A stretch of DNA of 50,427 nt. It comes from Eremomyces bilateralis CBS 781.70 (Eukaryota). Positions 22,259-50,427 of the stretch are shown here, one piece after another. The position numbers and the translations under genes were made by a program. Location of the stretch: NCBI GenBank assembly GCA_010015585.1, contig ML975171.1. One strand, written 5' to 3'. Position 1 is the stretch's first letter. Every line of letters begins with the position of its first letter. The notes beneath the pieces were generated by a model that saw only the letters and a list, made by a program, of their open reading frames with translations, did no database searches and was not told the origin of the DNA.

Positions 22259-23017
22259 GATGAACAATTGGACTTTTGATAATGGGTATGGGTAAGGATA
22301 AAGCGAAGGTCAGGTAACGATGCGTATGATAACGATGGACGAAATTGTGCAGATGCAGCTGAAATGCAGTGGAAAGGAGAACAATTGAAAATCACCGATT
22401 GAATCTTTGTTGACGTTTGTTGAGACAGGTCGCAGGGTAAGGTGCGATCCAGGAGTCGGCATGCCGACTTCTCCATACGACCTCGCAGGGAGGAACACCA
22501 TCCAGCTGAGCTATTAGACAATGTTAAGAAGTATGGCATAAGAGAGGCGACCTGTGTTGTGGTTATCTGGTTTGACATATCATGCTATATCATGTATAGA
22601 TAAATCCCCATCAATTGACAAACATTTGACACGGTTGACGGGAAAACGAGACGAGATTATGTATGTATTTGACTCATGATGTGCTAAAAGAATGCGTACA
22701 CCAGCGCTGAATATAAAAAAGGCAACTCCAGAGACTCCACGACTTCCATTTATACCCACAATGAATCGCAATATCAGCGTGAAAGAAGGACGTTGAACTC
22801 CATGGTGTCTCGCCGCTATGCTCACCCCGCAACAAGCAAATCATGATATGGTCGTTATGTTTGACATCATCTGTAGTCATCGCCAAACGAATAGGCTTTC
22901 GTATGGGCAGCATGGGGTATCTTCAAATCAAAGCATCATCATACCAATCGTCTGCGGTCAAACCTGAATGGTCTCCTGAATGGTCTCCTGAATCATGTGC
23001 AACTCAACGCCACATCT

Positions 23018-26000
23018 TCAAGGAATACTCTCGATCTCATCTCTCGCTCTCAAATACTTCGTTGCCAGCGAATCACCTCCCTTGCGACTCATCTCCATCC
23101 AATGCTGCGCAACGCACATGGTCATCGGATCGCTTCTCGCGGGATCTTCGCGCTTACGGTCCCTCGCGCTAAGCAGCTCCGATTTGAACACCTTTCCAGG
23201 TGGCGTGAGCGGCAAGACGGTTCGGGGAAGTAGGTCAGGATGAGTGAGGTACAGAATGGCCAACTCTCGCTCTGCAGCAGCGTCTCCTTCTTTGGCGGTA
23301 ATGATGAGCATGCGTGCTGCATCGGACATCGTGAAACGTGATACTGGATCTGCTGGCTGAGAGGCACTTGAGGGTCCGGAGGCATCGTTGGATACCGGGT
23401 GTTCCGTCGAGGCGGGGGGAGAAGCAGATGCATTGTTTGCAGTTGCCAGTGTATTGCCAGCGCTAGCAGCTGCGGACGTACGATTTTGAGTGTTTGCTGC
23501 CACGATATCGTCCGCGATCTCCACCATGAGCCGACAGACGTCCTCTTTGAGTCCAAGCGCAGCGAGCCCGGCGTCCCAAAATGCCTTGCCTTTCGCACTA
23601 CGATCCAGCTGCTGTGCAGGAACGAAGGCAGCAATGTATTGCAGGTCGCGAAAAAGCGTTCTGGGTCGAATTTCCGCGTCGCTGAAGAGGTGCTGCATGA
23701 CTTCAACGATCATATCCATAGATGGAATGGAAGATCCACGCTGGGACGGCTCTGGTGAGCGACGGTGACCTGCCTGAGAAGACAACGGGTCTGAACTTCG
23801 AAGGGCGGTGGGAGATTTTGGTGAAGTGACCACGCCATTTGCGGAAGTCGTCATGCTGTGTGAACGACGCTCCGCACAGTTCTGGATGGCCTCCTGGAGA
23901 TTCTGAGCGGTGGTCACACCAGGCACGGCTGAGGTCCGGCCAGCCATGCTAAGCTCCCGCGCCCCTGCCGTCACGGTAGCGGCGGCTTGGGTCGACACAT
24001 TGCCTCTTTCTTGATCTCGTCGCACACTGCCAAGCTGCCGCCCTGTCTTTGCCGATAACTGAGCGACAATGAGCTGCTCCAGCTCGTACAGCGCTTCGAG
24101 CTTCGCGAAAGGACTTGGGTGCCTCGCAAATTTAGCCAGGAGCCCGCGGAAAGCGGTCTGGTATGGAAAGTCGTTGGGATCGTCACGCTTGAGCTGTAGT
24201 AGGCTTGAAGCTACGACTGCAGATGACCGGTTGGCTTCACTCGAGCTGGTCGAGTACTCGCCGGCGGATATAGAGTCGGCTGCCGCGGCATTCGTGCTAG
24301 CATGGTGTAATGTTGAAACTGGCGGGGCAGGATCACTCCGCTCACCCCGCCCGAGCGTTTCCAGTGGATAGCTTCCGCGGTTATGTGAGTGTGTCTCCTG
24401 TCTCAACTGCTCGTTCTTGGCTTTTAGGTTCCGCATGCTCTTCTTCTTCTTCATGCGCCGCTTTTTCCTATCTTCTTCTTCTTTGCGTTGAAGGCATTCT
24501 GTGCCTAAATCACCTGAGAACCAGGAGTCCGTTTCCGCACCGGAATGGAAGACTAGTGAGCCGAGATCCGAGAGGAGGAGACCCGTCAGTGACCTTTTAA
24601 GCGTCAAAAGAAACATTCGCTTGCCTTCATTGAGTGGCGACGCGGGCTTGAGGATGGTCGTCGTGCTCTTCATGGATGAAGATGTTCCCGGCCGACGTCC
24701 GGGACCGGACGGAGAGATGGCTGCATCTTGTTTCGGTGCAAGCGAGAATGGGGACCAAAACGTCACGTTCAAGTCGATGCTGATCGACAGGGATCCCAAG
24801 CCAAAATAATCCGGAGAGTCCATCAGATGGCCTGTACCCCATTTGCTCGAGTCGATGCTCTGTTGCGATATGTTTGCGGCACTTAAACCTCGGAGACTGC
24901 TGGCGGTCTGCGCAGTGCCTGGACGGGACTGCGAAGACGATTGCGTCCTGCCAGGAGTAACCAGGCCATCACTGCCATCATCTAGTCCCATTCCAATCAT
25001 ACCCGTCCACCAGTCACCTTTGCCTTTTCCATCCAAAAGCGCACGATCACGACGGTAGAGTTCGCTGCTCCAAAGGACCGGCCCATCCATGATGCCATCG
25101 CCGATGATTTTGTTGACACATTTCTCGATTTCCAGGGTGAATCGATGAATGCGTTCTTCACCTTTGCAGAAATTCTCCACGCCCCCTTGTCGAAGCCAGT
25201 TCGCTGTCATATCACTTTGCTCATCCGTAAGCTTGTTCAAGCCACCCTGATCCGGTCCGGCAGCGAGTAGGTCCAGAGTCTGCGCTTCAGTCTTCACGAG
25301 AAACTCGTTGCCGGAAGATTGCCTTCCGAGACCTCGAGCTCGCGCCATGGCGACTGCAGTGAGCCCATGGGAGAATGAGTTCTTGGCCTGGGCGACAGCA
25401 TCGGTGCCCGAAGCAGGAGCATCACCAGGCATCAGTGGAACTTGCCCCATGATTCTCAACGCGACCGCCACGTTCCGCGCGTTCTCGTAACCCGCGCTAT
25501 TCTTCACATCAGTGACATACCACATCTTGTCACGCAAGTCATTCACGCTTTCCATCATCTCATCGATGCGGCCTTCAAGGCGTTCATCGGCCATAGTGAG
25601 CCAGTCGATCCATCGATCGAGGACACGCATGGTGGTTCCTGCGCGCGCCAATGCTTCCCGTGGTCCTCGCGAGAACATGTGCAGCAATGCAGCATAGTTG
25701 TTGCGAGTTAAGGACGACGATGAGATTGATCGGAGTTGGAGGATGGTATTGTGGTACGTGCTTGCACTGATGTAGTCTGAGCTCAGGGCCGAGGCATGAT
25801 AGGCCGACTCCAACATGGAGAGCAGAAGCGAAGGTGGATGTGTACGGTTGTCCGATGGCTCGGGGGTATGACGATGAGCTCCACCAGAATTGGTTCCAGT
25901 AGATTGATGGCGGGACGGGGTATATGACTGTGGACCTGATTGAGATTGGTCATGGATCCCACTTGCATGGTAAGGATTCTTCGATCCTTCAATCGATCGA

Positions 26001-29000
26001 CCTCTTGCAGCACTAGCTGTCCTTCCAGCCGCCTTATGGTCATCATGGTAGACCATTTCTTTGGGCACTTCATATTCTTCAACAAGTCTCGAGATTGCGA
26101 GTTTGAGCTCGTGGTAGTCCGCCTCAAGGTCGACAGCACGTTGACTTGGTCGTATGTGTGAGGTCGGTGGATGTGGATGCATTGAGTTTCGCATCGCGCC
26201 ATCAACGGCATCCTCCTCGTCTTCCTCGCTAGTACCTTCTTCATCCTCGCCGTCCACTCCACCAGCCCCTGAGACATTCAGTTCGAGTTCCCGACCATCT
26301 TGACTGACAAACAAGACGGTCCATTTTTCCGCCGCGGGATGGCAAGACCCGAGGCTTCCGATCTGGGCTTGGCTCCCAGACGCAAAAGTAGGAGTGCTCT
26401 TGGAAGAGGCCGCGCTGAGAGCGCGGAGCATTTCTTGGCAAGTGCGTCGAAGGCGTATGCCGTACTCCTCAGATGGTTGCACGTCTCCATCCGGGCTCGT
26501 CAAATCTTCACATGAGGACGATGAAGTCAGGCCGTATGACTCCGTGCTTTGCTTGTGGCCCAGCTCATGAGACCGGCCGCGTGCACCCTGGCCATCATCA
26601 AGCAACGGAACACGGCTAATCGCTGTGGTGTCCGACGTGGCGCTACTGGCAGATGCCGATAGCACCGAGCTGCCATCACCCGGCGTGGATGCTAAAGCAG
26701 AAATAGAGTGAGCAGTGGCGTTTGTTGACACCGACGATGGGCGAATGGGAACAGGTGCACTAGAAAGAGATGACGCGCCTAAGATGCTGGCGTTCGTCAG
26801 GCTGAGTTGGCTGGACGCTTGCTTAAGCGTGTGCCTGAAGTTGAGGGTAGAACTCGACGACGAAGCTGGACGACGGTTGGGAAACAAGGCATCAACAAGG
26901 GTGACAATGTCGGAGGGAGAGACGACGATGAACGGCTGCACTTGCATGGTCTCGCGGGCAGGCGATACCACCGATTTGGACGACACTAGGAGGGTCTTTG
27001 ACGACGCGGTGGGGTATGTATCAAATGTGGCATGGCCTGTACCGGACCCCTTCCCCAGTTTGAAAATCGACTCAAGCCCATCAATCTTCTCGCGTATCTC
27101 CGGGAGGGTAGGCGCTCCGGTCCGTTGCGAATGGCCTGCAGCGGGCTTGTTGAAGTGCCAGCTGAGCAAATCGTTGGCTTGCTTCTGAACACGCTGAGAT
27201 ATCACCCTGAATATCTGTTGCCTGGCGTGCTCCGAGACGTGGTAGCCCATCATCATACCGTGAGCTTCGGGCCAGACGATGGCATCGGTCAAGTAATGCA
27301 AGAAGAACCATTGCAATACTACATAATGACGAATGGCGGCCCGATGACGCTTCTCTGCCCCAGGCAGGGTCGACGAATGCAGCGCTCGAACAATTGCTTG
27401 GCCGAGTTCGATGGCACCTTCGGGAAGACCCCCGGACGACGAGTCGCTACCGATGAGCTCGAATAGTTTGAGAATAGCAGAGTCGAAGAACTCCTCCGCC
27501 CGTATGGTATCCTTGGTATTTACATCCGTAGAGAACTGTCCTTGTCGGAGGCGTGACCCAGGCTGAGCCTCCTGAAGCAGGAATTGGCCGTCCTCCAGAA
27601 CGCCCATCAACCAGGCTTCCAGGTTTGGTTTGGCTCCCCAGTGCCTCATGGCCGCCCATGCGTCTAGGGATAATTCCAAGAATTTGTTCCATCCGTTTTT
27701 GTGCTCGACGATAAGCTTGGCACAGGAGAGTGCCCAAGCATCAGTGCGGAGCTTGTCCTCAGCCGAGTCCGGCGTGGAAGTGGAGCCAAAGATGGTGAAC
27801 AACAAGGAAGAGAAAGGATCATGCCGAGCGAAGGAGAGAAGACGTTCTGTTTGACTTGGCCCGGCCTTCGGTGCCGCGGTATTGATGCTGCCAGGTTTTC
27901 CATTGGACTTTGGTACATTGGGGCCGGACTGGGACGAGAAAACGCTCTCCGCATAGTCAAGCGAGGATCTTGACGACACAAGGTTAAGGAGGTCAGAGTG
28001 TGACAGACTGGCCAGACGAGAAGCAAGGAACGACGGATTCGTCCGAATAGCGGAGAGGAACGTCAGGATATCTTGTCTTATCGACGACGGAAGGGCATGT
28101 AGCCATGTCGTTACAAATACCGGCTTCTTCGGCTCATCTACGGCACTTGCGGTATTCGCTTCATCCTGGATCTGATGTTGCAATTCCAGGTCCAGAAGGG
28201 CGAAGCGACGGGTGTCGTCGCAAGAAGCTCGTACATCATGAAGGGCGTTGTATAGAGTTGCGAAACTCTTCTTGTCATCCGAGCGAAAGTTATCCACGAG
28301 GGCGCGGTATGCGAGTCTTCCACAGTTTACCAAGCGGGCGTTCAAAGCAAAGGCGACCAAGCGACGGTGGAGGCGAGACTTTGCATGGCTCTGGCGATGT
28401 TCATGGTGTTTCTGCAGGCGTACAAGGTAGGCGAGCTCGGCAAGGGATGTACTGGAAGTGGTCACGGCAGATGTTGGTATGCTCTCGGAGGTATATTGGG
28501 ACGTATCGACCGGGAGAAGACGAAGTAGACGAGGGGTAACTTGAGGCCTCGATCCCGTAGGAGTCGCGTCGGTAGGGATCGAACGCGGAGTCTCATTGCC
28601 ATGGTCGGAGATTCTCCCTGCTCTCGTCATCCTGTATGGTTTGGATTGCGGTGAGCGAGACCGTGCTGGACTCGGAGAACGAAGAACAATCTCTTTGGGC
28701 CGACCATGGAGGGCGAGCTCGGGAGGGGAAGGGGTAAGACTTCTTGAAGAGACATGTGTAATGGTGGGAGATGCAGCTGGAAGGAACAATAGGAAGGTCG
28801 GATTAGCATAGGCTCTGCCACATCATCATACATTCGCGACGCGCACGGAGATATCGTAGCCGCTCCTCTTTGCCAGCCAGTAAGGGACAACGACGACGCC
28901 TTGTACACCAGTGCGCATGGCCACCGTCGAGGTCCTAATAGAACCATGTACTTACGTGGAGACGAGTAAGCCGGGGCGGGCGGCGATGAGGAGATTGGTA

Positions 29001-35795: not shown

Positions 35796-38072
35796 GGCTT
35801 CCTGTTATCGCCCACCTCATTGCTGCTTGATGGAAGCGATGGAACAACTGCCTGGTGTCTGCGGCTGATACTAGTATAATATCAGAAGCCCTGATCCCAA
35901 CAGTGGCAAAGTCCTCCCGGGACTTTATAATCTACGGACAGAACTGGGGAGCGATACCATCAAGGCCCAGCGCCCATCGTTCATCCGTCTCTGATCTAAC
36001 TAATCTAAAGGAGCAGGATGTAGCGGACTGGTTCCCTCTGCCTCAATTTACTGAGAGGTGGTCGACATCTTTTGAATTGGATACATGCAAGGACTTGAAA
36101 GAGCAAGACCCCAGATCCCCAAGACGGGAATCTTCAGACCTCAACCCCGTGATGGCCTTTCCTATTGTCTGCTTCAAGAATATCGATCATGTCTACCTCC
36201 TGCACACTCAACCCTCATCTCGAGATCTCATTTGGTAATCCATGGCGGTGCCACAGTGGGATCTCCGAACCCAGCTCCATATTCCTGGGGCCCGGGCTCA
36301 CGGCTGCTAGTGGATGGTGTTCTCCTTGGGACTTCCTGTTGGCCTGTACCACTTGGAACCTGGTTACACGTAATGAGGAATGGCCTGGGGGTGGGGGGTA
36401 CAGCATTTTGACAGTGTTCAGTTCCCGGTTTGCACCCCACCCCGCAAGCCTCTTGTCGTCAGGTCTTGTACTACTACGTATGGACAACGGTATAGCCCCT
36501 CAACCAGTGACAACACACCACTGCTTCGAATACGGCTATAGGACGTTCAGCCGGCCGGATCCTATTACTAGTACAGGGCAATTCTACCTAGCAACGCCAT
36601 GAATTCAAAAAAAAACAACCCTTCAAATGCCCCACCCTCTACAAGATTAGACCCTTAAACAACAGGGGTGCCTGCCTGCTCCAAATCTCCAACGAACAAA
36701 TCGCCCTCTTGAATTTGAGCACGCTGTCTATTTCCCCATTACTTCCGTATTTCTCGATCTATTTCGCGATCACTTTCTTGCCGTTCTCGCCTGCGGGCAG
36801 GTTCTTACCCTCACTCAGTGGCGGTCTCTTCCATCTAGGTTGATGTTGGACGAATCCATTCAACAATGTGTCACGGCAAGTTCCTTATCTTTCTAGACTT
36901 GCCTCCCTGAAGGCCAAACACGTCACTCACACCTCCAGCTTGATTGGACCGTCGCAGTGGTCTTGCTATTCTTGCAAATTTGTCTTTGGCATCGCCTCTA
37001 TATTCCATCGATAGTCTTTAACCGGCGGCCTCTAAGCACGCACTGATTCGAGCGAATTTCACGAGGCCTGAGATGGATGCGTCTGGTTCTGTGCTCGCCT
37101 CTCATTCAGGAGCGAGGAAACGAAATCATGTGATGAAAGACGCGGATTTTTCCAACCAACTAACAATATAATGAATATAACCTTGAAAAATTGCACCGGT
37201 TCATCCTACGTTCATGATCAGCTCTTCTTCCCAGACGGTTGTGCGAACCATGTCGAAATTGCCACCCGTTGGGAAGCCGTGCATTCATTGTGGTATTGTA
37301 GCCAGACGCAGTGTTCCAGGCCTTCTTCCACACCTTATGGTCCACTGGTGGCGGACCAGTTCCTTGATTAGCTTCACTTGGCCTTCATCGATGGACATTA
37401 GACAGTTGCTAAAGAACTACAGCACCTTCGGCTAGGAAATCTGCAACCAGACACTACATGCGCCTGGAGCCCCACGGAGCAGCTAGTGCTGCCATCCCGT
37501 GGGATGCTCACTAAGAACCATGCTCGACACTGTGCAGAGCTGCCGATGCATCGGACCACGCCACGGTGGACCAGACTGATGCCTGTCCGTGTATCCTGAT
37601 CTGTCCGTGAGCTAGTAAGTACCCGGTTCTAACAACTCAAGAGAGGCACCGAATGTCATTCGGGGTGCATGCTGCAGTTCCCCCCAGAGATGGGAAGCAT
37701 ACCTACTGCATCCTATCCATCTGGTTGAACAGTAGCATCATGTGCAAACACTGAGCTACTTTTGTACTTATATCTTCAATCATCCGCGTAGTTAGGACGC
37801 AGAATTCCTAGGCCTGCTTGACTACTCTCATCTTACCTCGGGGGATGAAGATATCATGCCGTAGTGGGACTCACATTCAGTCCATTCCAGATTCCCATCT
37901 CATATTTTAGAATATACATGGGCGACACGACGCAGGTCATGGATAGCAAGTTGCCTAGTTCATTGTTTATGGGGCAGACAGTCAGCCCATTCCATCTCAA
38001 GGACACTGTTTGGCTCCATATTCCGATCCTCTTGCTTTAAATCCTTTCTCTTTGCAGTCGAACAGGTTCCAG

Positions 38073-39348
38073 CTAATCCAAGATAGACCGGAGATATTCC
38101 CGGATCCCTTGGGAGCTTTTCTGGTTTTTAAATGGCATGCTATGGTCAACAACGGGCTCTACATGACAGGCCCTCGGTGCCACGATCAACGTAACCTTTC
38201 CAATATTCTCCCTTTCCCCTTCCCACGCCGCCTTCGCAGCATTCTCAAACCCAGTCGTGATTTTCTGCGCGATCTCCCGGATACTATCGATCATGATCTC
38301 CCCTCCTCCGCCCCAGATCATCATATGTGTCACGAGCGATGCCGCGCCTTCCCACCATTGCTCGTCGCAGACAATGGGCTCGCTCCACTCGTCCCCCAGA
38401 TGGCCCGGACGCGGTTTTCGTCCTTTGCCAATACCGGAATATAGAAAGTTCTTGGCGGCCCAGACCACTGTGGCGGGATAGAAAATGTCGGATCCGATGT
38501 TTTCTATCATAGAATCTTCGGTGCCGCGGAAGGAAATCCACGGCGAAAAGGCGACGGCGGCGTGCAACGGACCGGGAAGGTTCAGGGGAGGAATGTCGGG
38601 GTGTGGATGTGCGATGTGCGAGAGGACTGATAGAACCAGGTTACCACCTGCCGAATCACCGGCGATGATGAGCTAGGCCTTGTAAGCGCATTCCAAATCT
38701 TAGAACTCATATACCAGGCAGTGCGAACCTGAGATGTATCTTTCTTCTCGACCTCGATCATATGCCGCAGGAAATTTACGCCCTGTCGCAGCTGCGTCGG
38801 ATATGGCTTTTCAGGTGCAAGAGAGTACGCCAGCACGACAACCGACATGTTCTTCCCACTCTTCCTCATCTCTTTCATGAGGCTGAACAGAAACCGCACA
38901 TGGCCAGGCATGATGGCGTCGATGAACCCGCCGCCGTGGTAATATATCATGGTATACTTTGCATTCCGTGGACCAAGCCAATGCGCTAGGATCCCCTCGG
39001 GCAACTTGACGTTGTCGAGCTTCTTTCTCCTGCGCTTGACCATTCGATCGAGCACCTTGTCCGACCCGGGTGTCATACCCCGGGCTTGTTGAAGCGTGCG
39101 GCTCATGACAGCATCGCGAACTGCTGCGTAGGCCAAGTCGTTGATATACCTCGGGGCCTTTTTGTCTTTGCTCTTAAACGGGTATGTGATCATGTGGATG
39201 CTGCCGGGTATCGCTATTCATCCGAGTCGTGATGTATCAGAACCAATTGCGATTTCATTTGTATGGGATATCATCCGGGTTCTTCTCACTTACCGGCGTG
39301 CAAAATCACAGGAAACAGCGTAATCACGCTCTTGGGTTCGATCTCCAT
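38073..39348 (-). CDS. Alpha/beta hydrolase fold-3 (HSL-like esterase; Say1/steryl acetyl hydrolase-like), 3 exons
   Basis: YYHGGGF oxyanion motif. After the intron near 38728-38672 the frame reads LIIAGDSAGGNL (nucleophile elbow) and continues into FSPW..GGGEIM..CHVEP. Exon 1 is MEIEPKSVITLFPVILHA with a GTAAGT donor. Confidence 0.85.
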
Positions 39349-40101
39349 ATTCAAGCAAATCGTAGAAGACAATAATAGTTAACGAACGTGGAGCATATCT
39401 GCTGACTTACCGCGTCGCTGCACGAACCAGCGTCGTCCTACATTTACGAGTGAAATGTTCTGGAGCACATGTCGAGAAGCGACCGTCCTGCGGAACTGGG
39501 AAGCTCCATCACCCGAGGCGACTCCATAGCTTATATCAAGTGAGTTTTAGCGGCGGATAGCCCTGTCGTTCCACTCGGCTTGGGTTGGGGAAGTTGGCGA
39601 TCTAGACTCGGGCAGCGGAAAAGCCTTCGAGGTTTCATATTCGTGCCAATTGTTTGATCCGCACATTCCGAGAGCTTGTATATATGTGAAGACTGGAGCA
39701 TCAGCAACCGCGTAGGATGCATGGCCTAAGATCATGTCCCAGACAGGACTAGGGTGGTGTTTGTCCACGATATTCACATGTTTGATGGATCCGATGTTAT
39801 TATTGTCGTGGAGTTGACGGTCATGTGTAGGGATGTGTCGATAACAAGTAGATGGCGTGCATTGTGGGCATATTGTGGCGCATTGAAACAATCACGTGAA
39901 CTGAATACATACATAGTACTCAGGCTGGCGTGGCTGGCTAATCGAGGCGAGGCGTCGCGAGGCCCTCGCCTCGCCTCGCCTCGTTCCTCGATCAAGGCGT
40001 CGCTATTTCCCTGTATCACGTGTTGCTAGTCCCGTTTAGTCGTATGCTACCAATCTTTCATCGTCGTAGTCCGTATTTTCTGGATCTGACCCAGATTCTA
40101 T

Positions 40102-42310
40102 CCCTTCGGCCGCTGAAACATTGCCCCCTAGCCTAGGGTGGCACATACCAACATACAGGGGGCAGCCGCCCAATCAGATGTCGCTGTAGTAGATATTGCT
40201 CGCTCTCCATGATACTAGATACTATTCTTTAAAGCGCGATATCTTGCTATGATAGTTATTCCAGCAGCCACTATCTGTACAGAGAGGGACATTGCAGACA
40301 CTACAGCCAAATAACGTCTTTCCAGGAGACTTGCGAAGCACTCCGTTAACTTCAACGACGTCTTTCCGAAGTACTCCATTAATATCAAGAACGTCTCCAA
40401 ATTTGCGCTTTCTTGTACTAGAAAAGATCATCCGACAGCCTACGCAGCGAGCTTGCTCAGTTAATGGTATTAACCTGTGCTCTGCAAGGGGTATCTGTAG
40501 TAGATTGGCCTGCGGAGCCTCATAAGTCTGGGCTAGTCGCTGTTCAAATTGAGCAAGCTTATGCTCTCTGAAGACATCCTCTGAATATCGGAATAACTGT
40601 GTCCATAGCTCTGCTCGGAAATTCTTATGATCCATATACTGTTGTCCGTGCAGCTGTCGTCCTATTAGATAGGCGTTTAAGATTGATGTATCGATGATCC
40701 AGAACCAAAGAGGATACCAATTGCGAAGGGAGATTCGTTGCGTAGAATAATAGCTGCGGAGCTGATCAGCTATATCGACGCCTCCCATAAAGTGGTTATA
40801 GTCGTCGATAAAGATAGGAATTGGAAGGTTCTTTCGTACGTTATTTGCGAAGACCTTCCGTACAATAGGTCCGTTTGTAGACGTAAGTGCAGGGCGGCGT
40901 CTTAAGCGGACGATTGTCTGTTCCTCCCCAGCATCATGGACTGTAGAGCAAGCGAGGACAGTATTATTGGCCTGCCACGCAAAGCAGATCACACCTGGAT
41001 CTAAGGGATCCTCCTTCTGCTCCTCCTGCTCCTCCTGCTGCTCCTGCTTTGCGCGCTTTGTCTGCGAGGCTCCTTGGGAGGCAGCTTGGGAGGCAGTTTG
41101 TGATATTCTTGAAGTCTCTGACGGTTCCTTCTTGATCTTCCTTCGTGCGACAATGGAAGCTGTAGTATTCCACGCTAAACGCTTAGAACAGTACACCTTA
41201 AGATTAATCAGAAAGGCAGGGAACTCCGGGTGCCGTCGAGTAGTTCCGCAAGCTCCAACTCCTGTTTCTCGAAGTTTCCGAAGTAATGGAACACGTGTAA
41301 AGAAGTTGTCCATGTAAATAACATGCGGCGTATCTTTTGGAAGTTGTTGAGCAAGCTGGAATACCATCGATTCAGCCAACGAGAGATCTTTCTGCTTTAC
41401 TACCTCTCCGTAGCTTTTGGACTTTGAAGACCATACGAAGGCGTATGTATAGCCAGCTTCACAAAGGGAGAAGATCTTATAGCCTTCCTTAATAGGCTTA
41501 TTTGGAGCCTTAACTGTATGCTTGCTTCGTCCAAAGAATCGAATCATCATCTCATCAATTGAGACGTTGACCCCAGGCTTCCAATAACGCGCACAGTTCT
41601 CCCGGAACTCCGAAGCAATTGGATCAAGCTTATACCACCAATTCCGTCTCTTCTCTTGTGCATCGTCGTCCGAGTCATCATTTCCTTCCTGAACAGCCTC
41701 TTGAGGCGTTTCTGGAGGGCTGATATGGAGGAATCTCTTCAGGTCTTCGAACCTATTGAGACTAAGATTTTCCGCGCATATATGTCGGCCAAATTTAGAT
41801 TTCCAGTAGTCTTCGTGCGCAGGGAGGCGCACTACGCCCATGTACCATAGATGAAGACCCCGATAAAGACCTTAATTTCAGATGCTGTCGTAGGGCACCA
41901 GCTTCGCTTCCCTGCAATGCCTGCTTCCTTAGCTCTTGCATATTTATTGGTATTCTCCGCGATCGTTTGGAAGTGTTGATCAGTAAGGAATAGCTTAAAG
42001 AGATTGTACGGGTCTGTTTTATTCCCGTCCGGGATCTGGATTGCTGGTAATCGAGAAATATTGCGATATGGGAGCGGATCGTAGCTTGGAGGCTCCGGAA
42101 TTGCTTTAATCAGTGTTGTAGGCTCTAATTTGGCACATTTAGAAGGCCTACCCGACATTATTAATTGAAGAATGATATAACTCTACTTTGTACTCACGAT
42201 TTGGATACTGCGCGACGAGATACCGACGAGCTCTGATTGGGTGATCATTTACGGTACAGGCTGGTCCGTGCCATCATAGGCTAGGGGGCATTATTTCAGC
42301 GGCCGAAGGG
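40102..42310 (-). mobile_element. piggyBac-like DNA transposon with 43-bp TIRs
   Basis: TIRs 40102-40144 and 42268-42310 match at 39/43 and begin CCCTTCGGCCGCTGAAA. Internal inverted 10-mer CCCAATCAGA at 40169 and 42232. The element encloses a DDD transposase. Confidence 0.9.
40222..42158 (-). pseudogene. piggyBac (PGBD4-like) transposase, frameshifted by a 5-nt insertion at ~41845-41849
   Basis: Catalytic motifs VSIDEMM, YMDNFFT and GGVDIADQ, plus a C-terminal Cys-rich domain. The motif EIKVFIGVFIY-MGVVRLP is split across two frames. Confidence 0.88.
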
Positions 42311-42870
42311 ATAGGATTCACCGACCTTAGCGATCGTGGTATTGGTCCCTATATAGTATACAGGACTACGGATGGTATATTTAACCATGGTTCGCGCAGG
42401 CCTCGCGAGGCGAGGCGCTTAGTCATCCCTCGCGACGCCTCGCGACGCCTCGATTAGCCAGCCTCTCATAGTGGCGTGGTAGCGTGGATTAACCATCCAT
42501 GTGCCTGGTTTCCGTTTATCCTCCATCCGTATTATTGTCCTGCGACACAGGTCGAGATGAAAAGACAATAGGAATTGATCCGCCGGGAAATTGTTTGAAT
42601 ATCTCGATAAATATATCATATGTATCCACAACCAAGTCGTCCATGTGCGGAACGTTGCTTTTTCCCGATCGCTGTGCAACATCCAGGTTCCTTGCAGGGA
42701 ATTGAATGGCTCTCATCATGTCCACGCAGCAGTGCAGCTCCTCGAAAATCCCCGCGTACATGGAGGTTGACCGTCGCACATTACTCCGTCTGAGGAGGAC
42801 TTTCCCCATCGTCCGCGTATAGCTCCTTTAACGAGTATTCTTGCATCAAACTGCAGATATCTGAAAGGCC

Positions 42871-43992
42871 ATGGCTGCAGAAGATTTCGCTGACCGGCCG
42901 AATCGCCCGGCATCCTCGCCAGGTCCGTTGCCTGATACCTCCCGCTCGCCTCTTCACCACCACCACCAACCGTCGTCCTCGTCAATTCTGCCTCTCTTCC
43001 GTAGCAATAATTCCTCCACCACTTCGTTAAATAAGCCGTTGACCGTCGAGGAGTCTTCCGCCGGTCAGAGAACGAGCCGGTCGAACCCATTGAGCCATTT
43101 GTCCTTCCGTAACCGCCGTCACCGCGTCGAGAAATCACCAAGCTCCCGTACCTCCCTCTCATCGCTGCCCGTCATTGTTAGGACTTACTCCGGCGAGTCC
43201 ATCCGTGCTTCCTCGCGTGTTCGCTCCCCGACGCCGTCCAGTGGGGCCGTAATGCCCAGAGATGCGAAGCTGCCATCCATCGACGCGTTTTCGTTCGCCG
43301 GGATCCTACGAGCCGTCGAGCCGGACATTCGAGACCACATCGACTCCATCGCGGAGATCTGTGCGCGGAGTCGCTTAAGCCTTGCGGACGAGTATGGTGC
43401 GCACCTCCCGCCGCAGGGTGAAATACTGCCAGACCAATCCTACGGCGGAAACCTGCCGGCCGGTCATCGAGGCACCCGGGCAGGCTTTCTCGGTCGAACG
43501 TTGACAACGGTGACGGAGGCGTCCAGCAGTAGTGAAAGGCTATCCGGAGGCAGCAAGCCTGGATCGGCAACCTCAAGTTATGCTCGCATGACGGCGTACG
43601 GTTCATTGAGGAGCATCATATCTGGGTCAACGCGGAACAAGAAACCCAAACTGTCCAAAACATCAGACACACGACGGAGCGAAGGCTCAAAAGAGAATTT
43701 ATCTGAGCACAAGGAAGTGAGATCGCCCACTGGTTGGGTCATATCAGAGAGGACTCCTCCCTCCGTTGTCGTGGTTGCAAAACCGTCGATGACCAACTCT
43801 GAACACCAGGAAGAGTCTGTCCAAGTATCCAATATGGCGGCACCAACGCAACCCGTTCTCCGAAGACCCGAATCCACTCTATGGTTCCCTCGACTATGGA
43901 GATCATCAGCTGCAACCGGACCATCCGCACAAGAGAATGTCCCCCCAAACGCCGAAGAGAGTTTGAAAGACCTCCTCAAGTCCACGAAATGA
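42871..43992 (+). CDS. Hypothetical protein (373 aa, single exon), Ser-rich with a short ordered core
   Basis: ATG-initiated ORF in a good context (GCCATGG). The helical core LPSIDAFSFAGIL..IDSIAEICARSRLSLADEYGAHLPPQGEI resembles uncharacterised Pezizomycotina proteins. Confidence 0.75.
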   Translation: MAAEDFADRPNRPASSPGPLPDTSRSPLHHHHQPSSSSILPLFRSNNSSTTSLNKPLTVEESSAGQRTSRSNPLSHLSFRNRRHRVEKSPSSRTSLSSLPVIVRTYSGESIRASSRVRSPTPSSGAVMPRDAKLPSIDAFSFAGILRAVEPDIRDHIDSIAEICARSRLSLADEYGAHLPPQGEILPDQSYGGNLPAGHRGTRAGFLGRTLTTVTEASSSSERLSGGSKPGSATSSYARMTAYGSLRSIISGSTRNKKPKLSKTSDTRRSEGSKENLSEHKEVRSPTGWVISERTPPSVVVVAKPSMTNSEHQEESVQVSNMAAPTQPVLRRPESTLWFPRLWRSSAATGPSAQENVPPNAEESLKDLLKSTK

Positions 43993-44816
43993 TCGATTAC
44001 GACAAAAAAGCTTCTGCGTCTCCTTTTTATGTTGATGAATGCCTTGATGATTATGAGATACGACGACGATTTACGATTTACGATTAGATAACAGTGCTCC
44101 CGCTGAGCCATAACGAAATATGACCCAGGCGGCGGACGTTTTATTTGTTGTTGTAACCCAAAAGCTTGAAGATTGACTCGGATTTTTGGCAACTCATTGG
44201 GAGGCCGTCCATGAAGCGAATTTGCACCTATGCCTTTCTGACCTCTTCCAAAATGTAGGGCATGATTGTCAGGTGCATGTTGGATCCCAGGTCTTTGAGC
44301 GTAGAGCCTCATCTGTGTATACAATGACAATATGGAAAACCCCTTCGACAGAACAGAATGAGATTCACCATTGCAGAGTAATAGTAGTTATTGGAAAAAT
44401 CATCGACAAGGAGAAAGTATCATGAAGCAATAGAAGAACCTACCTCCGGGAGTGATTTCAGTCGATATCGGTATCCACGTGACCTATCCATTCTGGGGAG
44501 ATTCGTAGTCCACATCTGAAGCTTCATCACGAGCGTAGCGAGTTACTTAAGTGGTATTGGTAGAATCAAAAACTTTTTATTGCCCTCTCATTGGCTAGAC
44601 AGGGGTTCGCGAAAGGAAACCACGTGATTTATGAGAGGAAACCACGTGATTTCGATGCTTTTTACTGTTTACTTTCTGTCGCTCTCTTTCCTCTCCACCA
44701 CTCTTCCCACATGGGCCTCGCAGGGAGGCCTAACGGGCGTAGGGATACCAATCAATCAATCTACTTCTTATTCCTGATCTACCACTTACTTATCCTTCTA
44801 TTATTACGCCTCCGAC

Positions 44817-47800
44817 ATGTCATCTTCTGGAGACGCCGGTGGTAGAGTATGCTCGAATTGTAGGTCCTGGAGGGTTGATAAGGAGTTTACTTCGAAGCGT
44901 CGCCGACTACTGGTCAAGAAGTGCTGGCGATGTCGTTACGGCCACGATCATGGTGATGCTGTAGGTAGAGTGAATGATTCGAATACGTTCAAGCTGACAT
45001 CATTAGACCCCCTATCTTCGACCCGCCGCTACGTCTACGCGAGACGCCTCGTCCTCGCAACCAACCGACACTGAGGACGATAGGTCTTGGAGGCGGGAGG
45101 CTTCCCTATTCCACCGTGCCGGAATACATAGCCAAGACGATGGGGATAGAGCCGCTGCTCGCAGGGAGTATAATGCTATGTCACGGGCTCATCGCGCTGC
45201 TACTCGTCTACACCGTAATGTCCAGCCGCTACCAACGTTCGGGGATTATCTCCAACGACGGAGGCTATCACCTTCACATCAACCGCAATCAGGTCAAGGT
45301 GCTCCTGATGATGGCGACAACGGGTTTAGGCGTCTAAGTCCGATCTCCTTGGCCGGGTTATCCCAAATTCAGGGCGATGAGCAACCCCGTACACGTCATC
45401 AGGAAGATGAGCAACGCGATCGTACACGTCAACGGACAGATGAGCAAAGCGATCGTACACGTCAACGGAGAGATGAGCAACGCAATCGTACACGTCAACA
45501 GCGAGATGATGGTCGTACAGAAGCACTTCAGCGCGGAGATGTTCGCCTCGATCCCCAGTCCCGGGATTTCAACATCCAGGATGCCAATCTTTCCGAGCAG
45601 GATTGGGGATACGTTAAGGCCTTCCACCAGGAGATGGCTAGTTTGAACCTTGAGCACTGCGCCCAATGTGACGAAAAATGGTTTGATATGCGTCTCGTGG
45701 ATGGTATATGTCATCGATGTAGGATCGACGATAGGAAACGAGGCGATTTACCACCGCTGTATTCCGCAGAGAATCATTTAAATCCTGGTCTGGGCCCGTC
45801 GCATCACAATCTTCCTGAGTTATCTCAAGTAGAGGAGCTCCTTATCGCCCGTGTCCATTGTGCTGTGGAGGTTCGAAAGGTTAACGGTCTTCAGTACCGT
45901 TATACAGGACATATCATCAACTTCATGAGAGACGTGGGGCGCGTATACAATCGACTACCTCTCCTTCCGAAAGACCTTGAGATCGTTGTCCTTCGCCCTG
46001 CGAATTGGGATCAGGATCCCCGTATGCAGCGCCAGTTTCGACGCGACTACCGTGTTCGCCGTACTGTCATCGAGCAGTGGCTAACCCATCTCAAGGTTCA
46101 CCCCCCTAGATATCTGTCGTGAGCAGTTGCTAACCCATCTAAAGGTTTACCACCCCGGATATCGCGATGTCGTCGTCGACCCTAGCCGCGTGCAGCATCT
46201 TCCTATTGATGATAGTATTATGGAAGAGGTCGGCGTCCAGACTATTGAGGAAGAAGAGCTAGGAGGCGGCGATGACGATACGGGAGACGAGGTAGATTAC
46301 GTCGCCGTAGTCCCGGATCTCCTCCAACCCCAGACGGAGATGGAGCAACTTCGGCAGCATGTCGATGATGCTCATGAACGTCGACGTGAGCATCTGACGA
46401 TGCCTGAGTTTAGATTGACTCCTCTATCTGAGTTTAACCACTCTCAGGCTCTTCTAAGCCTGGCGTTCCCAAGCTGCTTCCCCTGCGGTATTGGGGACTT
46501 CGTTCATCCCCGTCTCCGTAAGGTAGAGTATCGTGAATATATTAAGCATCTGATGAGGTTCCACGATGGTCGCTTTGCGAAACATCCGCGCCTACGGTAT
46601 GTCCTTTTTAACACTCTTTTCCGGAAACAGGTCAGTACCCGTGCATCTTACTTCGTTCGTCAACGTCCTGAGCATAATGATCTATCTCTTGAGGAACTCC
46701 GTGCTGCTTTTGCGGATGACTCTCCTGAAGCCCAGGCCCTTCTGAACTCTATTATCCGTTTTTCAGGGAGTCTACGCGGCACGCGGCCCTATTGGATTGG
46801 GCGTGGTAAGCAGCTTGAAGCTACCGTGCAATGGTTTGGGTCTCCCGACATCTTTTTAACGCTGTCGGCCGCCGATTACCACTGGGATGATCTACAGCGT
46901 CATTTACCTCAATATGAGGAGTGGCGTAATGGATCTCCAGCGGAGCGGATCTCAATCTCACGCCGGAACCTCCGAGACTATCCCCATATCGCCGCCTTCC
47001 TCTTTCATCGGCGCCGTGAGGCTCTCTACAAGAATTTAGTAGATCCTAAGTTTAACATCCGCGATCAATGGGGCCGATACGAGTGGCAGGGTCGCGGCTC
47101 GTCGCACTCACATTTCCTCCTCTGGCTAGACCGTGCCTGCCCTAACAGCGAGCTTGATCGTATCCCTACGGAGGATCTCCCTGCCGCCCTTGAGAAATTT
47201 GCGCAGTTCTGGGGCGGTCACATCACGGCGTTAAACCCCGAACCTTCCCGTCGGGTGCGACCAGAGGATGAGCGGAGTGCTATCGCGCTAAGTCCCCACA
47301 CCCAGGAGAATATACTGGCCCATTACTCGGCTATCATCAACCGTGTACAGAGGCACCACTGCAGTGATGCGTACTGCCTCCGTACGAATAAACGCACTGA
47401 CCGGAAGGAGTGTCGTTTCTACGCCCCATGGCGGATCCGGGATGTGCCTGTGGTTACGAAGGATGAAGGCAACCCTAGGTTCTTTAACTTTCGCGGTATC
47501 CGGAACGATGATCGGTTAAATCACAGCAACCCTGCCCTTATCACAGCCTGGCTTGCGAATATCGATATCACGCCCTGTACAGGGAGTCGAGCAGTATTAG
47601 CGTATCTTGGAAAGTACTGCTCAAAACCAGAGAAGAAGACGGCCACCTTCCACGATATCCTAAAACATCTCCTAACGATCGTTCCCGAACATACGCGCCG
47701 GCCATTCCTTTCGCTGACCACGAAGATTATGAATCGTCTAATTGGTGAGCGGGATTGGTCAGCCCAGGAGGTTTCCCATATTCTTCTTGATCTCCCCCTC

Positions 47801-50080
47801 CAAGTCTCTTCACGCGTGGTGATTTCCGTCGATTGTCGCCCGGAGGTGGAGCAGCCCCAAGGAATTGAAATCCAGGACGATGGGACTATCCAGAGCGGCC
47901 TCTCCCCTCTTCAAAAGTATAAGCAAAGACCTGAAGCGTTTAACGACATTTCCTATCTTGAGTTTCTACGTTGCTATGAATTCGCACGGGTTAACTCAAT
48001 TCGGAAGAGAGGAGAAGGGAAGGAGCGGGCGTTAAATTACTTCCCCCGATATTCATCGGTCGGCGATACCCGCGAAGACTGGTGTCGCGTTAAACTGATG
48101 CTACATCACCCCTTCCGCCGTATGGATGATCTCCTCCGGCCCGAGCTTGATGGTCTGCTTTTTGCGTCGTATTCTGAGGTGTATTCCGCGTCTTGCGTGA
48201 ATGGTCAGCATAACCATCCGGTGGATCATTACGACCCTATTGTTCTTGCGGACGAGGATGAGTTTGAAGAAGGCGCCAATGAGGAGGAGGATCAGCAAGG
48301 GAGCTGGGATGAGCTCGCCGGTCAACTGCCTGGTCGCGATAGAACCGTTCTAGAGGACCCAGATGCCCTTGGTCAACGACCTCTTGACCGTGAGTACGAT
48401 TGGGCGTCCCATGTCGGGAAGTATGAGATTACGAAGGAGTGGTGGGCCACTGCAAAGGCCCAGTATCCCTATATTCATGAAGCTGTTCCCTTCGCACCTG
48501 ATACCGTTGAAAAGCTGAACGCTAAACAACGTATAACATACGATATCCTGACGACCCACTTCGCACACGTTATTGCGACAGGCACTCCTGGGCCTCAGCT
48601 TCTGATTAACGTTGATGGCGAGGCGGGTACAGGGAAGTCTTTTGTTATTCAGCTGATCTCCTCGCATCTCCAGGAGGCAGCTTCACGGCATAGATTACCG
48701 AACCCTGTTCTTCGTGCTGCGCCTACGGGCGTCGCAGCTCACAGTCTCTCCGCGTCGACACTACATACTCTTTTCCGTCTTCCTGTCCAGAATATCAATT
48801 CTCTCGATCCCCTCCGGCCGGCTGCTCTTCAAGCCGCTCAGGCCACCTTCCGGGGTATACGGTACCTGATTATCGATGAAAAATCTATGATCGGCCTTCG
48901 CCAGCTCTCCCATATTGACCGTCGTTGCCGCGAGATCTTTCCTGGCGTAGACAAGTCTTTCGGTGGTCTCTGTATTCTCCTCTGTGGCGACTTCTTCCAG
49001 CTTCCTCCGGTCTTGGCAACTGCTCTTTATAACCAGAAGAGTCATCTAAATCTAGATGAACGGCATGGGCGTAGTATCTACTACCAATTCGAGCGAACGA
49101 TCAAACTTGATGAAGTCGTGCGGCAGCAGGGTAATGACGTTGAGTCGATTCAGTTCCGCCAGGCTCTCGATCACCTGCGGATAGGCTCCGCAACTCGTGA
49201 CGACTGGACACTGCTTAGTACACGAGTACAGGCCATGCTTCCGTCTGAGGAGGTAGCATCGTTTGGGGACACTCTCCGTATCTTTGGTAAGAAAGCGCCG
49301 GTCGCCGTGTATAACTACTGTCGTTTACGCGATCTCCGTTCTCCTGTTATGATATGTCGAGCTATTCACGAAGGAGGGGCGAAGGCAGAAAAAGTTCCGA
49401 CTAATGAGGCAGGAAACCTCCATTCGGAGATTCCGATGGCGTTGGGAACCCGTATTATGTTGACAGAGAATCTCTGGACCGAACGAGGCCTGGTGAACGG
49501 TGCGATGGGAACAGTGCGTGATATTAGCTGGCAGGCTGGTGCTGATATCCATAAGGATCCTCCTTCCGTACTCCTCGTTCAATTCGATCGGTATGATGGA
49601 CCGACGTTGGACGTAGGCGGCATTGGCTTGGTCCCAATCCTCCTATCACGCCGCGAGTTCTATATCGAGAATACTTCCTGCTCACGTTCACAGTTCCCGT
49701 TGACCATCGCCTATGCCATCACAACGCATAAGTCGCAGGGAATGACTCTAGAACGGGCTGTGCTGGACATTTCGGAGCGGGAGTTCGCGCCTGGCCTGAC
49801 CTATGTGGCAGTCTCCCGTGTGAAAAGCCTTAGAGGGATCATGTTTGAGGCTCCATTCGACTTGCAGGATTTGAACCCTCGCACGGAGAGCGAGACGATG
49901 AAGTTCCGGAAGGAGGATGCGCAGAGGAGGGAGAACCAGCATATCACGGCAGAGGTTTGTTTACATTATTTGAATCAATCGCGCGGTGTTGACATAGTGT
50001 AGGATATCCGACGGGCAGTCGGATCGTCATCCTCAATTCCGCTTTCTTCGCAGGCGGCACTGTTAGGACGGAGTTCATAG
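44817..50080 (+). CDS. Helitron Rep/helicase (HUH endonuclease + PIF1 SF1B helicase); predicted exons 44817-44960, 45007-46095, 46145-49954, 50003-50080
   Basis: Rep motifs FLTLSAADYHW, RYEWQGRGSSHSH and YLGKYCSK. Helicase motifs GEAGTGKS, IIDEKSM, GDFFQLPPV, QFPLTIAYAITTHKSQGMTL and YVAVSRV. N-terminal CxxC pairs. Three 46-49-nt GT-AG introns give one continuous frame; if the last is unspliced the CDS stops at 50002. Confidence 0.9.
45376..45519 (+). repeat. 33-bp (11-aa) coding tandem repeat in the RepHel N-terminus, ~4.5 units
   Basis: GATGAGCAA..CGTACACGTCA units encoding DEQPRTRHQE / DEQRDRTRQRT / DEQSDRTRQRR / DEQRNRTRQQR. Confidence 0.9.
46072..46163 (+). repeat. 49-bp-period tandem duplication spanning the predicted intron 46096-46144
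   Basis: GAGCAGTGGCTAACCCATCTCAAGGTTCACCCCCCTAGATATC vs GAGCAGTTGCTAACCCATCTAAAGGTTTACCACCCCGGATATC, 37/43 identical. Confidence 0.9.
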
Positions 50081-50427
50081 CTGGGTGGCGTGGATGCGGA
50101 GGATTTCCGGAAGGCGGAGAGTGAATGCTGTAAGCAAGGTAGTTATGTGGCGCGAGATCAGGATCAAAACATCACTGTACGATCAGACGATCAGATGAGA
50201 AAAGGGGATCATTTGATTTCCTAATTAGGAAGTATGCACTCGTCGCGAAGATGCTGTTTTTGAGCGATTCAACTATTTCCGTGTTTCCTCCCCATGATTA
50301 GGAATACCTTGATTAATAATCCTACGGGGGGTGATGCTATACTCTAGGATGGGAGAGATCACGTGCTAGCTGCGCTCGTGATGATTTGGGGCAGAAAGGT
50401 TGCCTTTATGCACCACTGGCCTATTTT

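Follow-up and report, generated by a model that had tools for sequence, protein, structure and literature searches.

The source of most gained introns is not traceable (PMC4974935), and a transposase gene of Eremomyces bilateralis CBS 781.70 (assembly GCA_010015585.1, contig ML975171.1) raises the question of whether an intron can be traced to the exon beside it. A sequence-only reading of the 50,427 nucleotides analyzed here, which we call the window, had proposed that a tandemly duplicated stretch of exon within the RepHel gene of a Helitron had become an intron. The duplication, its absence from distant relatives, a joined contig of RNA type and a protein under selection are all present in the data. 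We conclude that intron 2 of this gene is very probably a genuine spliceosomal intron that arose when exon sequence was duplicated in tandem, as in Rogers' model.

The host element was assigned to Helitron2 (HLE2) from its domains, its termini and similarity searches. Judged from its sequence it carries the marks of the FoHeli1/2 type, namely the domains, an asymmetric inverted repeat, a predicted 3' hairpin, an ATTTT end and a TNAT target. TNAT lies directly 5' of the element in all five copies with a readable 5' flank, and the AT at 44526-44527 is probably target site rather than element. Folding of 44526-44560 predicted no 5' hairpin of the kind seen in FoHeli1/2. The spliced RepHel model has four exons and encodes a protein of 1706 amino acids, in which Pfam identified DUF6570, Helitron_like_N and PIF1 and gave no match to an endonuclease domain. 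The features are as follows, where X1 is the public run described below and a joint is a place where one of its contigs skips window sequence.

44526..44539, plus strand: 5' arm (14 nt) of the asymmetric terminal inverted repeat, 13/14 complementary to 50369-50382
44528..50427, plus strand: full-length FoHeli-like Helitron2 (HLE2), about 5.9 kb, with ends common to other copies
44817..44960, plus strand: RepHel exon 1, with the ATG and two CxxC pairs
44961..45006, plus strand: RepHel intron 1, 46 nt, not exon-derived (no match to its flanks); X1 joint, depth 685.8
45007..46095, plus strand: RepHel exon 2, whose end falls within DUF6570 (profile 2-116 of 133)
46064..46113, plus strand: repeat unit 1, 50 nt, made up of 32 nt of exon 2 and the first 18 nt of intron 2
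46080..46085, plus strand: exonic source of the branch point by sequence, GCTAAC within Trp-Leu-Thr codons
46096..46144, plus strand: RepHel intron 2, 49 nt, probably duplication-born; X1 joint, donor GTTCAC, acceptor AAG, in-frame TGA at 46120-46122
46114..46162, plus strand: repeat unit 2, 49 nt, made up of the last 31 nt of intron 2 and 18 nt of exon 3
46129..46134, plus strand: predicted branch point GCTAAC by consensus match only, with its A at 46133, 11 nt ahead of the intron end
46145..49954, plus strand: RepHel exon 3, with Helitron_like_N, HUH and Y2 motifs and PIF1 helicase
49955..50002, plus strand: RepHel intron 3, 48 nt, donor GTTTGT; X1 joint, depth 500, shorter side only 26
50003..50080, plus strand: RepHel exon 4 and stop, from the translated spliced model
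50369..50382, plus strand: 3' arm of the asymmetric inverted repeat, 45 nt ahead of the TATTTT end
50388..50416, plus strand: predicted 3' subterminal hairpin (DNA fold of 50365-50427, -9.8 kcal/mol, no shuffle control)

Intron 2 sits where DUF6570 ends, with the WLxxL motif on one side and the HPxY motif on the other, both of them almost invariant. Elsewhere in exon 2, an in-frame 33-nt tandem array of 3.7 copies occupies 45388-45509; among the copies of the element described below, the array has one unit more in C2, one unit fewer in C7, and is 72 nt shorter in C21.

The tandem duplication of about 49 bp proved real and somewhat longer than originally described, since the 37/43 identity first reported covers only the ungapped part at 46072-46114, while the full extent matches at 42 of 50 columns, with seven mismatches and one gap. 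Tandem Repeats Finder gave the repeat a score of 144 and a period of 49. The match between the 49-nt segment and the upstream exon had a score that none of 2000 shuffles reached, and introns 1 and 3 showed no match to their own flanks (score reached by 320 to 2000 of 2000 shuffles). AAG/GT is present twice, at 46095/46096 and 46144/46145, and provides the donor and the acceptor. As the sequence-only reading had stated, the frame is broken by the TGA at 46120-46122 if the RNA is left unspliced, and excising 46096-46144 yields one open frame, which is colinear with the intron-less copy C7 and with homologues. The 1290 downstream codons were indeed open, with the count needing correction to 1285, of which 1270 are exonic because the gene has two further introns (44961-45006 and 49955-50002). 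The GCTAAC at 46129-46134 putatively serves as branch point; the motif is kept in the intron of C21, lost from the C21 exon, and lost from the intron of the decayed C1 copy. The expected concentration of substitutions in the intronic halves was also seen. Six of the eight differences between the window units are intronic and two exonic, and all five changes common to the three intron-bearing lineages (window, C1 and C2) are intronic. The C21 exon has the exonic state at all five positions, which by this comparison confirms the direction of the shared changes, with the intron as the derived side.

Evidence for splicing was sought in X1, the only public run among those listed, which is stored as contigs and is not on record as RNA, the label being a guess by the tool. 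When X1 was aligned to window positions 38000-50427 (12.4 kb), nine joints were found, and because six of them have intron ends (three CT..AC on minus-strand genes and three GT..AG in the Helitron) we treated the run as RNA. One contig joins 46092>46142 and skips 49 nt, so the RNA junction at 46095/46145 that had been proposed as a check was recovered. With the cut moved by +3, the joint corresponds to GT..AG at 46096-46144, and it has a depth of 627.5 and a shorter side of 140 letters. In this one contig-form run, then, intron 2 shows the hallmark of a U2 intron, removal from RNA at GT..AG. Seventeen frame-restoring GT..AG pairs less than 130 nt apart were listed, and 46096-46144 is the sole pair seen as an X1 joint. 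Among the best 40 of 146 listed rows, the only differences at depth 627.5 are 45924T and 45942T, both of which are the alleles found in the intron-bearing copy on C31/C40; at the two positions C7 has C, and it shows several further differences. From the equal depth we infer that these rows come from the joined contig. The GTTCAC donor pairs with the U1 consensus at 4 of 9 positions, as against 5 to 8 for the five other joints, and T occurs at donor +3 in three of the six joined introns. Although this makes it the weakest donor of the six, X1 assembled the joined form, and the suggestion in the sequence-only reading that inefficient splicing could limit transposase output gained no support. Intron retention is not readable from contigs, in which rare forms are dropped, and contig depth in X1 cannot rank genes, so that the high depth over the element was not used as an expression level.

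A joined contig might also arise without splicing, through slippage of reverse transcriptase between the repeats or from a DNA copy lacking one unit, in which case the window would contain an element with a shifted frame that was mobilized in trans. False introns are known to arise from direct repeats, and 7 of the 43 possible crossover points would give exactly the spliced product. An intron-less DNA copy, C7, does exist, the X1 joint is marked 'between: not known' in a run whose RNA label is the tool's guess, and depth in all 30 bins of X1 means that DNA may be present. We nevertheless regard this account as very improbable. The crossover sits in the 7-point GT..AG block rather than in the longest block of 13 points, which would give another product, and the joined contig bears alleles of an intron-bearing copy. 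The joint depth of 627.5 resembles that of two ordinary introns (685.8 and 500), the downstream frame is under purifying selection in the window lineage, and the intact copies found all carry the intron, C7 being frameshifted and internally deleted. That intron 2 is really spliced is in our judgment highly probable.

X1 and the open frames also gave information on other parts of the window. The joints 45008>49696 (4687 nt skipped) and 48825>48879 (53 nt) lack intron ends and are probably deleted Helitron copies. On the minus strand, 38673-38728 is a joined 56-nt intron of a neighboring gene with donor GTTCGC and no clear CTRAC branch point. Also on the minus strand, 40222-42197 holds a DDE_Tnp_1_7 transposase ORF, which we take to be piggyBac-like, with a joined 50-nt intron just upstream; the joint 40099>42311, which skips 2211 nt, suggests an internally deleted form of this element. 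A 1934-codon open frame with no Pfam match lies at 23018-28822 on the minus strand and is adjoined by a MYND-finger frame with 51-nt tandem repeats at 20033-22309.

A DNA search of the genome returned 11 matches at nine places, eight of which are readable at the junction; the C38 copy is N across the junction and was excluded from all counts. The 49-nt intron is present at six of the eight, while one (C7) is precisely without it and one (C21) has a different 47-nt intron. Across the repeat no difference separates C23 (this window), C34, C31 and C40, and the 49-nt insert is also found in C1 and C2, both of them decayed. The four young places, C23, C34, C31 and C40, all lie at contig ends and represent two haplotypes with 2 differences per 5902 sites, both synonymous; they appear to be two real copies, each assembled twice. 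Values of dN/dS against other copies ranged from 0.15 to 0.38, and the changes private to the window lineage comprise 55 synonymous and 26 non-synonymous changes over 1375 codons. These ratios and counts, together with the haplotype differences, indicate recent transposition of the intron-bearing lineage and continued selection on its protein, and the suggestion that the element stayed functional after the duplication is upheld by the purifying selection seen in the private changes. The copy tree is nearly star-like and the copies look mosaic, a signal too weak to order events.

Two trivial sources of the repeat were considered and rejected. An assembly artefact is ruled out because the 49-nt insert recurs on other contigs, in two decayed copies that have private changes in it, and a duplication private to a dead copy is ruled out by the young copies (2/5902, both synonymous) and the purifying selection.

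Several copies have further rearrangements. C2 (L018, G000:C2) has, at the equivalent of window position 45692, an insertion of about 500 nt that ends in 18-nt terminal inverted repeats, is flanked by a target duplication of 8 bp and is presumably hAT-like. C7 (L017, G000:C7) and C38 (L020, G000:C38) are non-autonomous derivatives that lack window 47529-50037 and are identical at 1334 compared sites, and in C7 a 7-nt duplication shifts the frame.

Whether the intron was gained at this site or lost elsewhere was addressed with distant relatives. Five distant DNA loci cover the site, consisting of the second Helitron family of the same genome (44% identity) and four metagenome loci; the latter came from a metagenome alignment scan that retained 80 of 529 loci, of which five matched the junction query and four covered the site. 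All five distant loci (L037, L057, L059, L064 and L118) are intron-less, and we therefore consider intron 2 a gain. None of the five spells GCTAAC..AG/GT at the site, and the latent cassette is thus peculiar to this subfamily. The set of homologous proteins numbers 262; the site falls within 238 of these, 221 of which are ungapped, and none of the 238 breaks after the junction Lys; many of the ungapped homologues are spliced gene models and are uninformative on intron absence. In one distant relative, protein P0126, homology breaks about 7 codons before the junction into an apparent read-through intron, possibly a nearby but different intron site. No relatives were found between about 57% protein identity (the best outside match) and the copies of this genome, and the gain is therefore only loosely bracketed. 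A scan for close metagenome relatives with one protein gave 74 pattern matches, none of them confirmed.

The expectation that relatives would lack both the intron and the duplication was borne out by the five distant loci and failed in the nearest outgroup, C21, which has another exon-derived intron at the same site. Because of the C21 intron, a single 49-nt duplication is probably too recent and too simple an account of the gain, which would date to or before the C21 split, or have occurred twice. In this copy (L016, G000:C21, around 2830-2880), which belongs to a diverged subfamily, a 47-nt insert lies at the same AAG/G. Its donor is a canonical GTATGT, and in alignment with the upstream exon 33 of 44 columns agree, a score reached by 0 of 5000 shuffles and 0 of 10042 other window 60-mers. 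The C21 intron extends 10 nt further upstream than the window unit and is without a copy of the downstream exon, and in the C21 exon the branch-point motif and the GT after the acceptor are both changed. The first three C21 exons (150, 1050 and 3810 nt) are stop-free, so C21 is intact if the predicted 47-nt intron is spliced. No further C21-type copies were found among four matches.

Both introns align to one 60-nt (20-codon) unit with one clean deletion each. On these alignments we lean slightly towards a single 60-nt in-frame duplication in the ancestor of both subfamilies, trimmed differently in each. The remnants abut exactly and sum in frame, one A>G is common to both introns, and a rough Poisson comparison, based on 11 differences for C21 (insertion included) and 4 shared substitutions for the window clade, gave 1.2 to 6.3 in favor of one origin. 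On the contrary side, the window intron has diverged less from its exon (5 substitutions in 49 nt) than has the C21 intron, where 44 columns show 10 substitutions and 1 insertion (Fisher p about 0.1), and neither the genome nor the 262 proteins yielded a duplicated form that is 60 nt long or in frame.

The copy without the intron bears on the same history. C7 is precisely without the 49 nt, has both exonic halves, and keeps intron 1. Seven sites group the intron-bearing copies against C7, compared with 9, 9 and 11 for the other three groupings, and in the copy tree C7 is nested with C1 at 72% support. If C7 predated the gain, roughly 35 synonymous changes common to the intron-bearing copies would be expected, an estimate obtained by scaling 5 changes in about 40 free intron sites to 340 synonymous sites. 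Because only 7 such sites were found and C7 is nested with C1, a later precise loss is the likelier course, and from the pattern of shared sites we consider it likely that C7 lost the intron in this way. The route may have been RNA-templated repair or recombination in the 10-nt core common to the units. An error-prone duplication at birth would void this argument.

Two other histories could produce introns of this kind. The window lineage and C21 could have gained theirs independently, by duplications of 50 nt and about 46 nt respectively, at a hot spot formed by the latent branch point and AAG/GT. This is a variant within the explanation favored here, not an alternative to splicing, and C7 may then represent the ancestral state. 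The breakpoints differ, the 5' parts of the two introns are barely alike when compared directly, and the window intron is the less diverged. Two origins are also plausible because this family often duplicates short segments, as in the variable 33-nt array and the 7-nt duplication in C7. However, joined together the remnants make an in-frame unit of exactly 60 nt, from which the C21 donor would arise without any substitution, C7 has no long branch apart from the intron-bearing copies, and the common A>G and the Poisson comparison favor one origin, so that independent gains appear to us possible and rather doubtful. In the other history, an older intron of different origin at the site was overwritten by the flanking exon, through local gene conversion or templated repair, and its exon-like sequence would then be no record of its birth. 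The position is common to two subfamilies about 16% apart whose intron sequences differ, and the mosaic look of the copies would suit such a process; against it, the five distant loci have no intron at the site, and every base of both introns can be traced to the flanking exon with no foreign remnant. We give overwriting scarcely any credence.

Under the single duplication that we slightly prefer, the steps, whose order we infer, would run as follows. Codons of the subfamily would by chance have spelled a branch point (GCTAAC, Trp-Leu-Thr), an AG (Lys) and a GT (Val), correctly ordered and spaced. A short tandem duplication over AAG/GT would have placed a donor about 50-60 nt ahead of a ready-made branch point and acceptor, and the spliceosome could then excise exactly one unit and leave the protein unchanged. 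The intronic halves would have drifted and acquired a frameshift and a stop, which makes splicing now obligatory. In the window lineage the 60-nt duplication would later have been shortened by 11 nt (10 nt in mid-unit and 1 nt), and in the C21 lineage a loss of 14 nt after the GT would have created the canonical GTATGT donor without any substitution.

If so, one genome would hold the whole life history of an intron at one site, from a 60-nt in-frame duplication that needed no splicing to an obligatory intron reached by two routes, and we see the case for this as evenly balanced. The same even balance applies to its details, in which one route would keep a weak donor and the other make a canonical one by deletion, with decay of the exonic signals in one lineage and precise loss of the intron in a third. 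If the gains were independent instead, the site would illustrate recurrent gain at a codon-encoded splice cassette. Either way, if the gain is true, multi-copy transposase genes would be a place to watch intron birth directly, and the case shows that a transposase gene can remain active after a frameshifting duplication when host splicing removes the extra unit. Since this one genome contains the state before the gain, two states after it and a probable loss, the steps are open to re-enactment with minigenes, namely the minimum length of the unit, the strength of the donor at birth, the in-frame start and later optimization.

The element resembles FoHeli1 and FoHeli2 of Fusarium oxysporum in its length of about 6 kb, TNAT target, DUF6570 and RepHel without endonuclease (PMC5148889, PMC11417382), as well as in an asymmetric inverted repeat 38-51 nt from the ATTTT end (PMC5148889). 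It differs in its protein (about 49% identity), its terminal sequence and the lack of a predicted 5' hairpin (PMC5148889, PMC11417382); Chaetomium relatives are also without a 5' hairpin (PMC5148889). DUF6570 is an HLE2 marker (PMC11417382). The word 'intron' is absent from the main text of the FoHeli paper (PMC5148889). We found no published case of tandem-duplication intron gain in a Helitron transposase in the literature searched, outside which most subscription journals fall.

According to a review, tandem duplication is the only intron-gain mechanism that has been shown in vivo, with 188 events counted, precise and imprecise (PMC3443670, Table 1). The sequence-only reading's remark that clear natural examples are few thus stands for precise gains only, given the 188 events counted for the mechanism overall (PMC3443670); the literature consulted offers few precise exon-duplication gains for which the source is visible and both RNA support and intron-less relatives exist. 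In Daphnia it is common for introns to have been gained in parallel at one site (PMC4202315), and D. pulex likewise has different introns at one site in related alleles. The main text of that paper never uses the word 'tandem', whereas both introns at the RepHel site come from adjacent exon and their origin is possibly shared (PMC4202315). In the potato RdRp gene (Ma, Lan and Niu 2016, PMC4974935) a recent gain by tandem duplication also has an identified source, but the duplicated segment there spans an intron-exon border that already existed and brings intronic signals with it, whereas the RepHel signals are all codon-derived. Other fungal introns made of duplicated exon are those of SPOG_01682 / SOCG_00815 in fission yeast (Zhu and Niu 2013, cited in PMC4974935) and NCU09740 in Neurospora tetrasperma (PMC4317165). 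They consist of repeated 24-bp units or of one identical copy of 614 bp, in contrast to the two units, diverged intronic halves, second form at the site and intron-less sister of RepHel (PMC4974935, PMC4317165). ATP2A1 is alike in that an AG/GT duplication gives donor and acceptor, the branch point was latent in the exon, the protein is unchanged and intron-less paralogues exist (PMC3265369). With ATP2A2, Rogers' model was reproduced in cells, where splicing amounted to 6 to 16% (PMC3265369). The ATP2A1 intron is more than 420 million years old and its source is inferred, whereas the RepHel intron halves are still about 85% identical to the exons (PMC3265369). Also unlike ATP2A1, the RepHel unit matches the size of its own gene's introns (46-49 nt) and sits in a transposase (PMC3265369). 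The mechanism is already known from such cases, and the value of the RepHel intron lies in the completeness of the case and in the second form at the same site.
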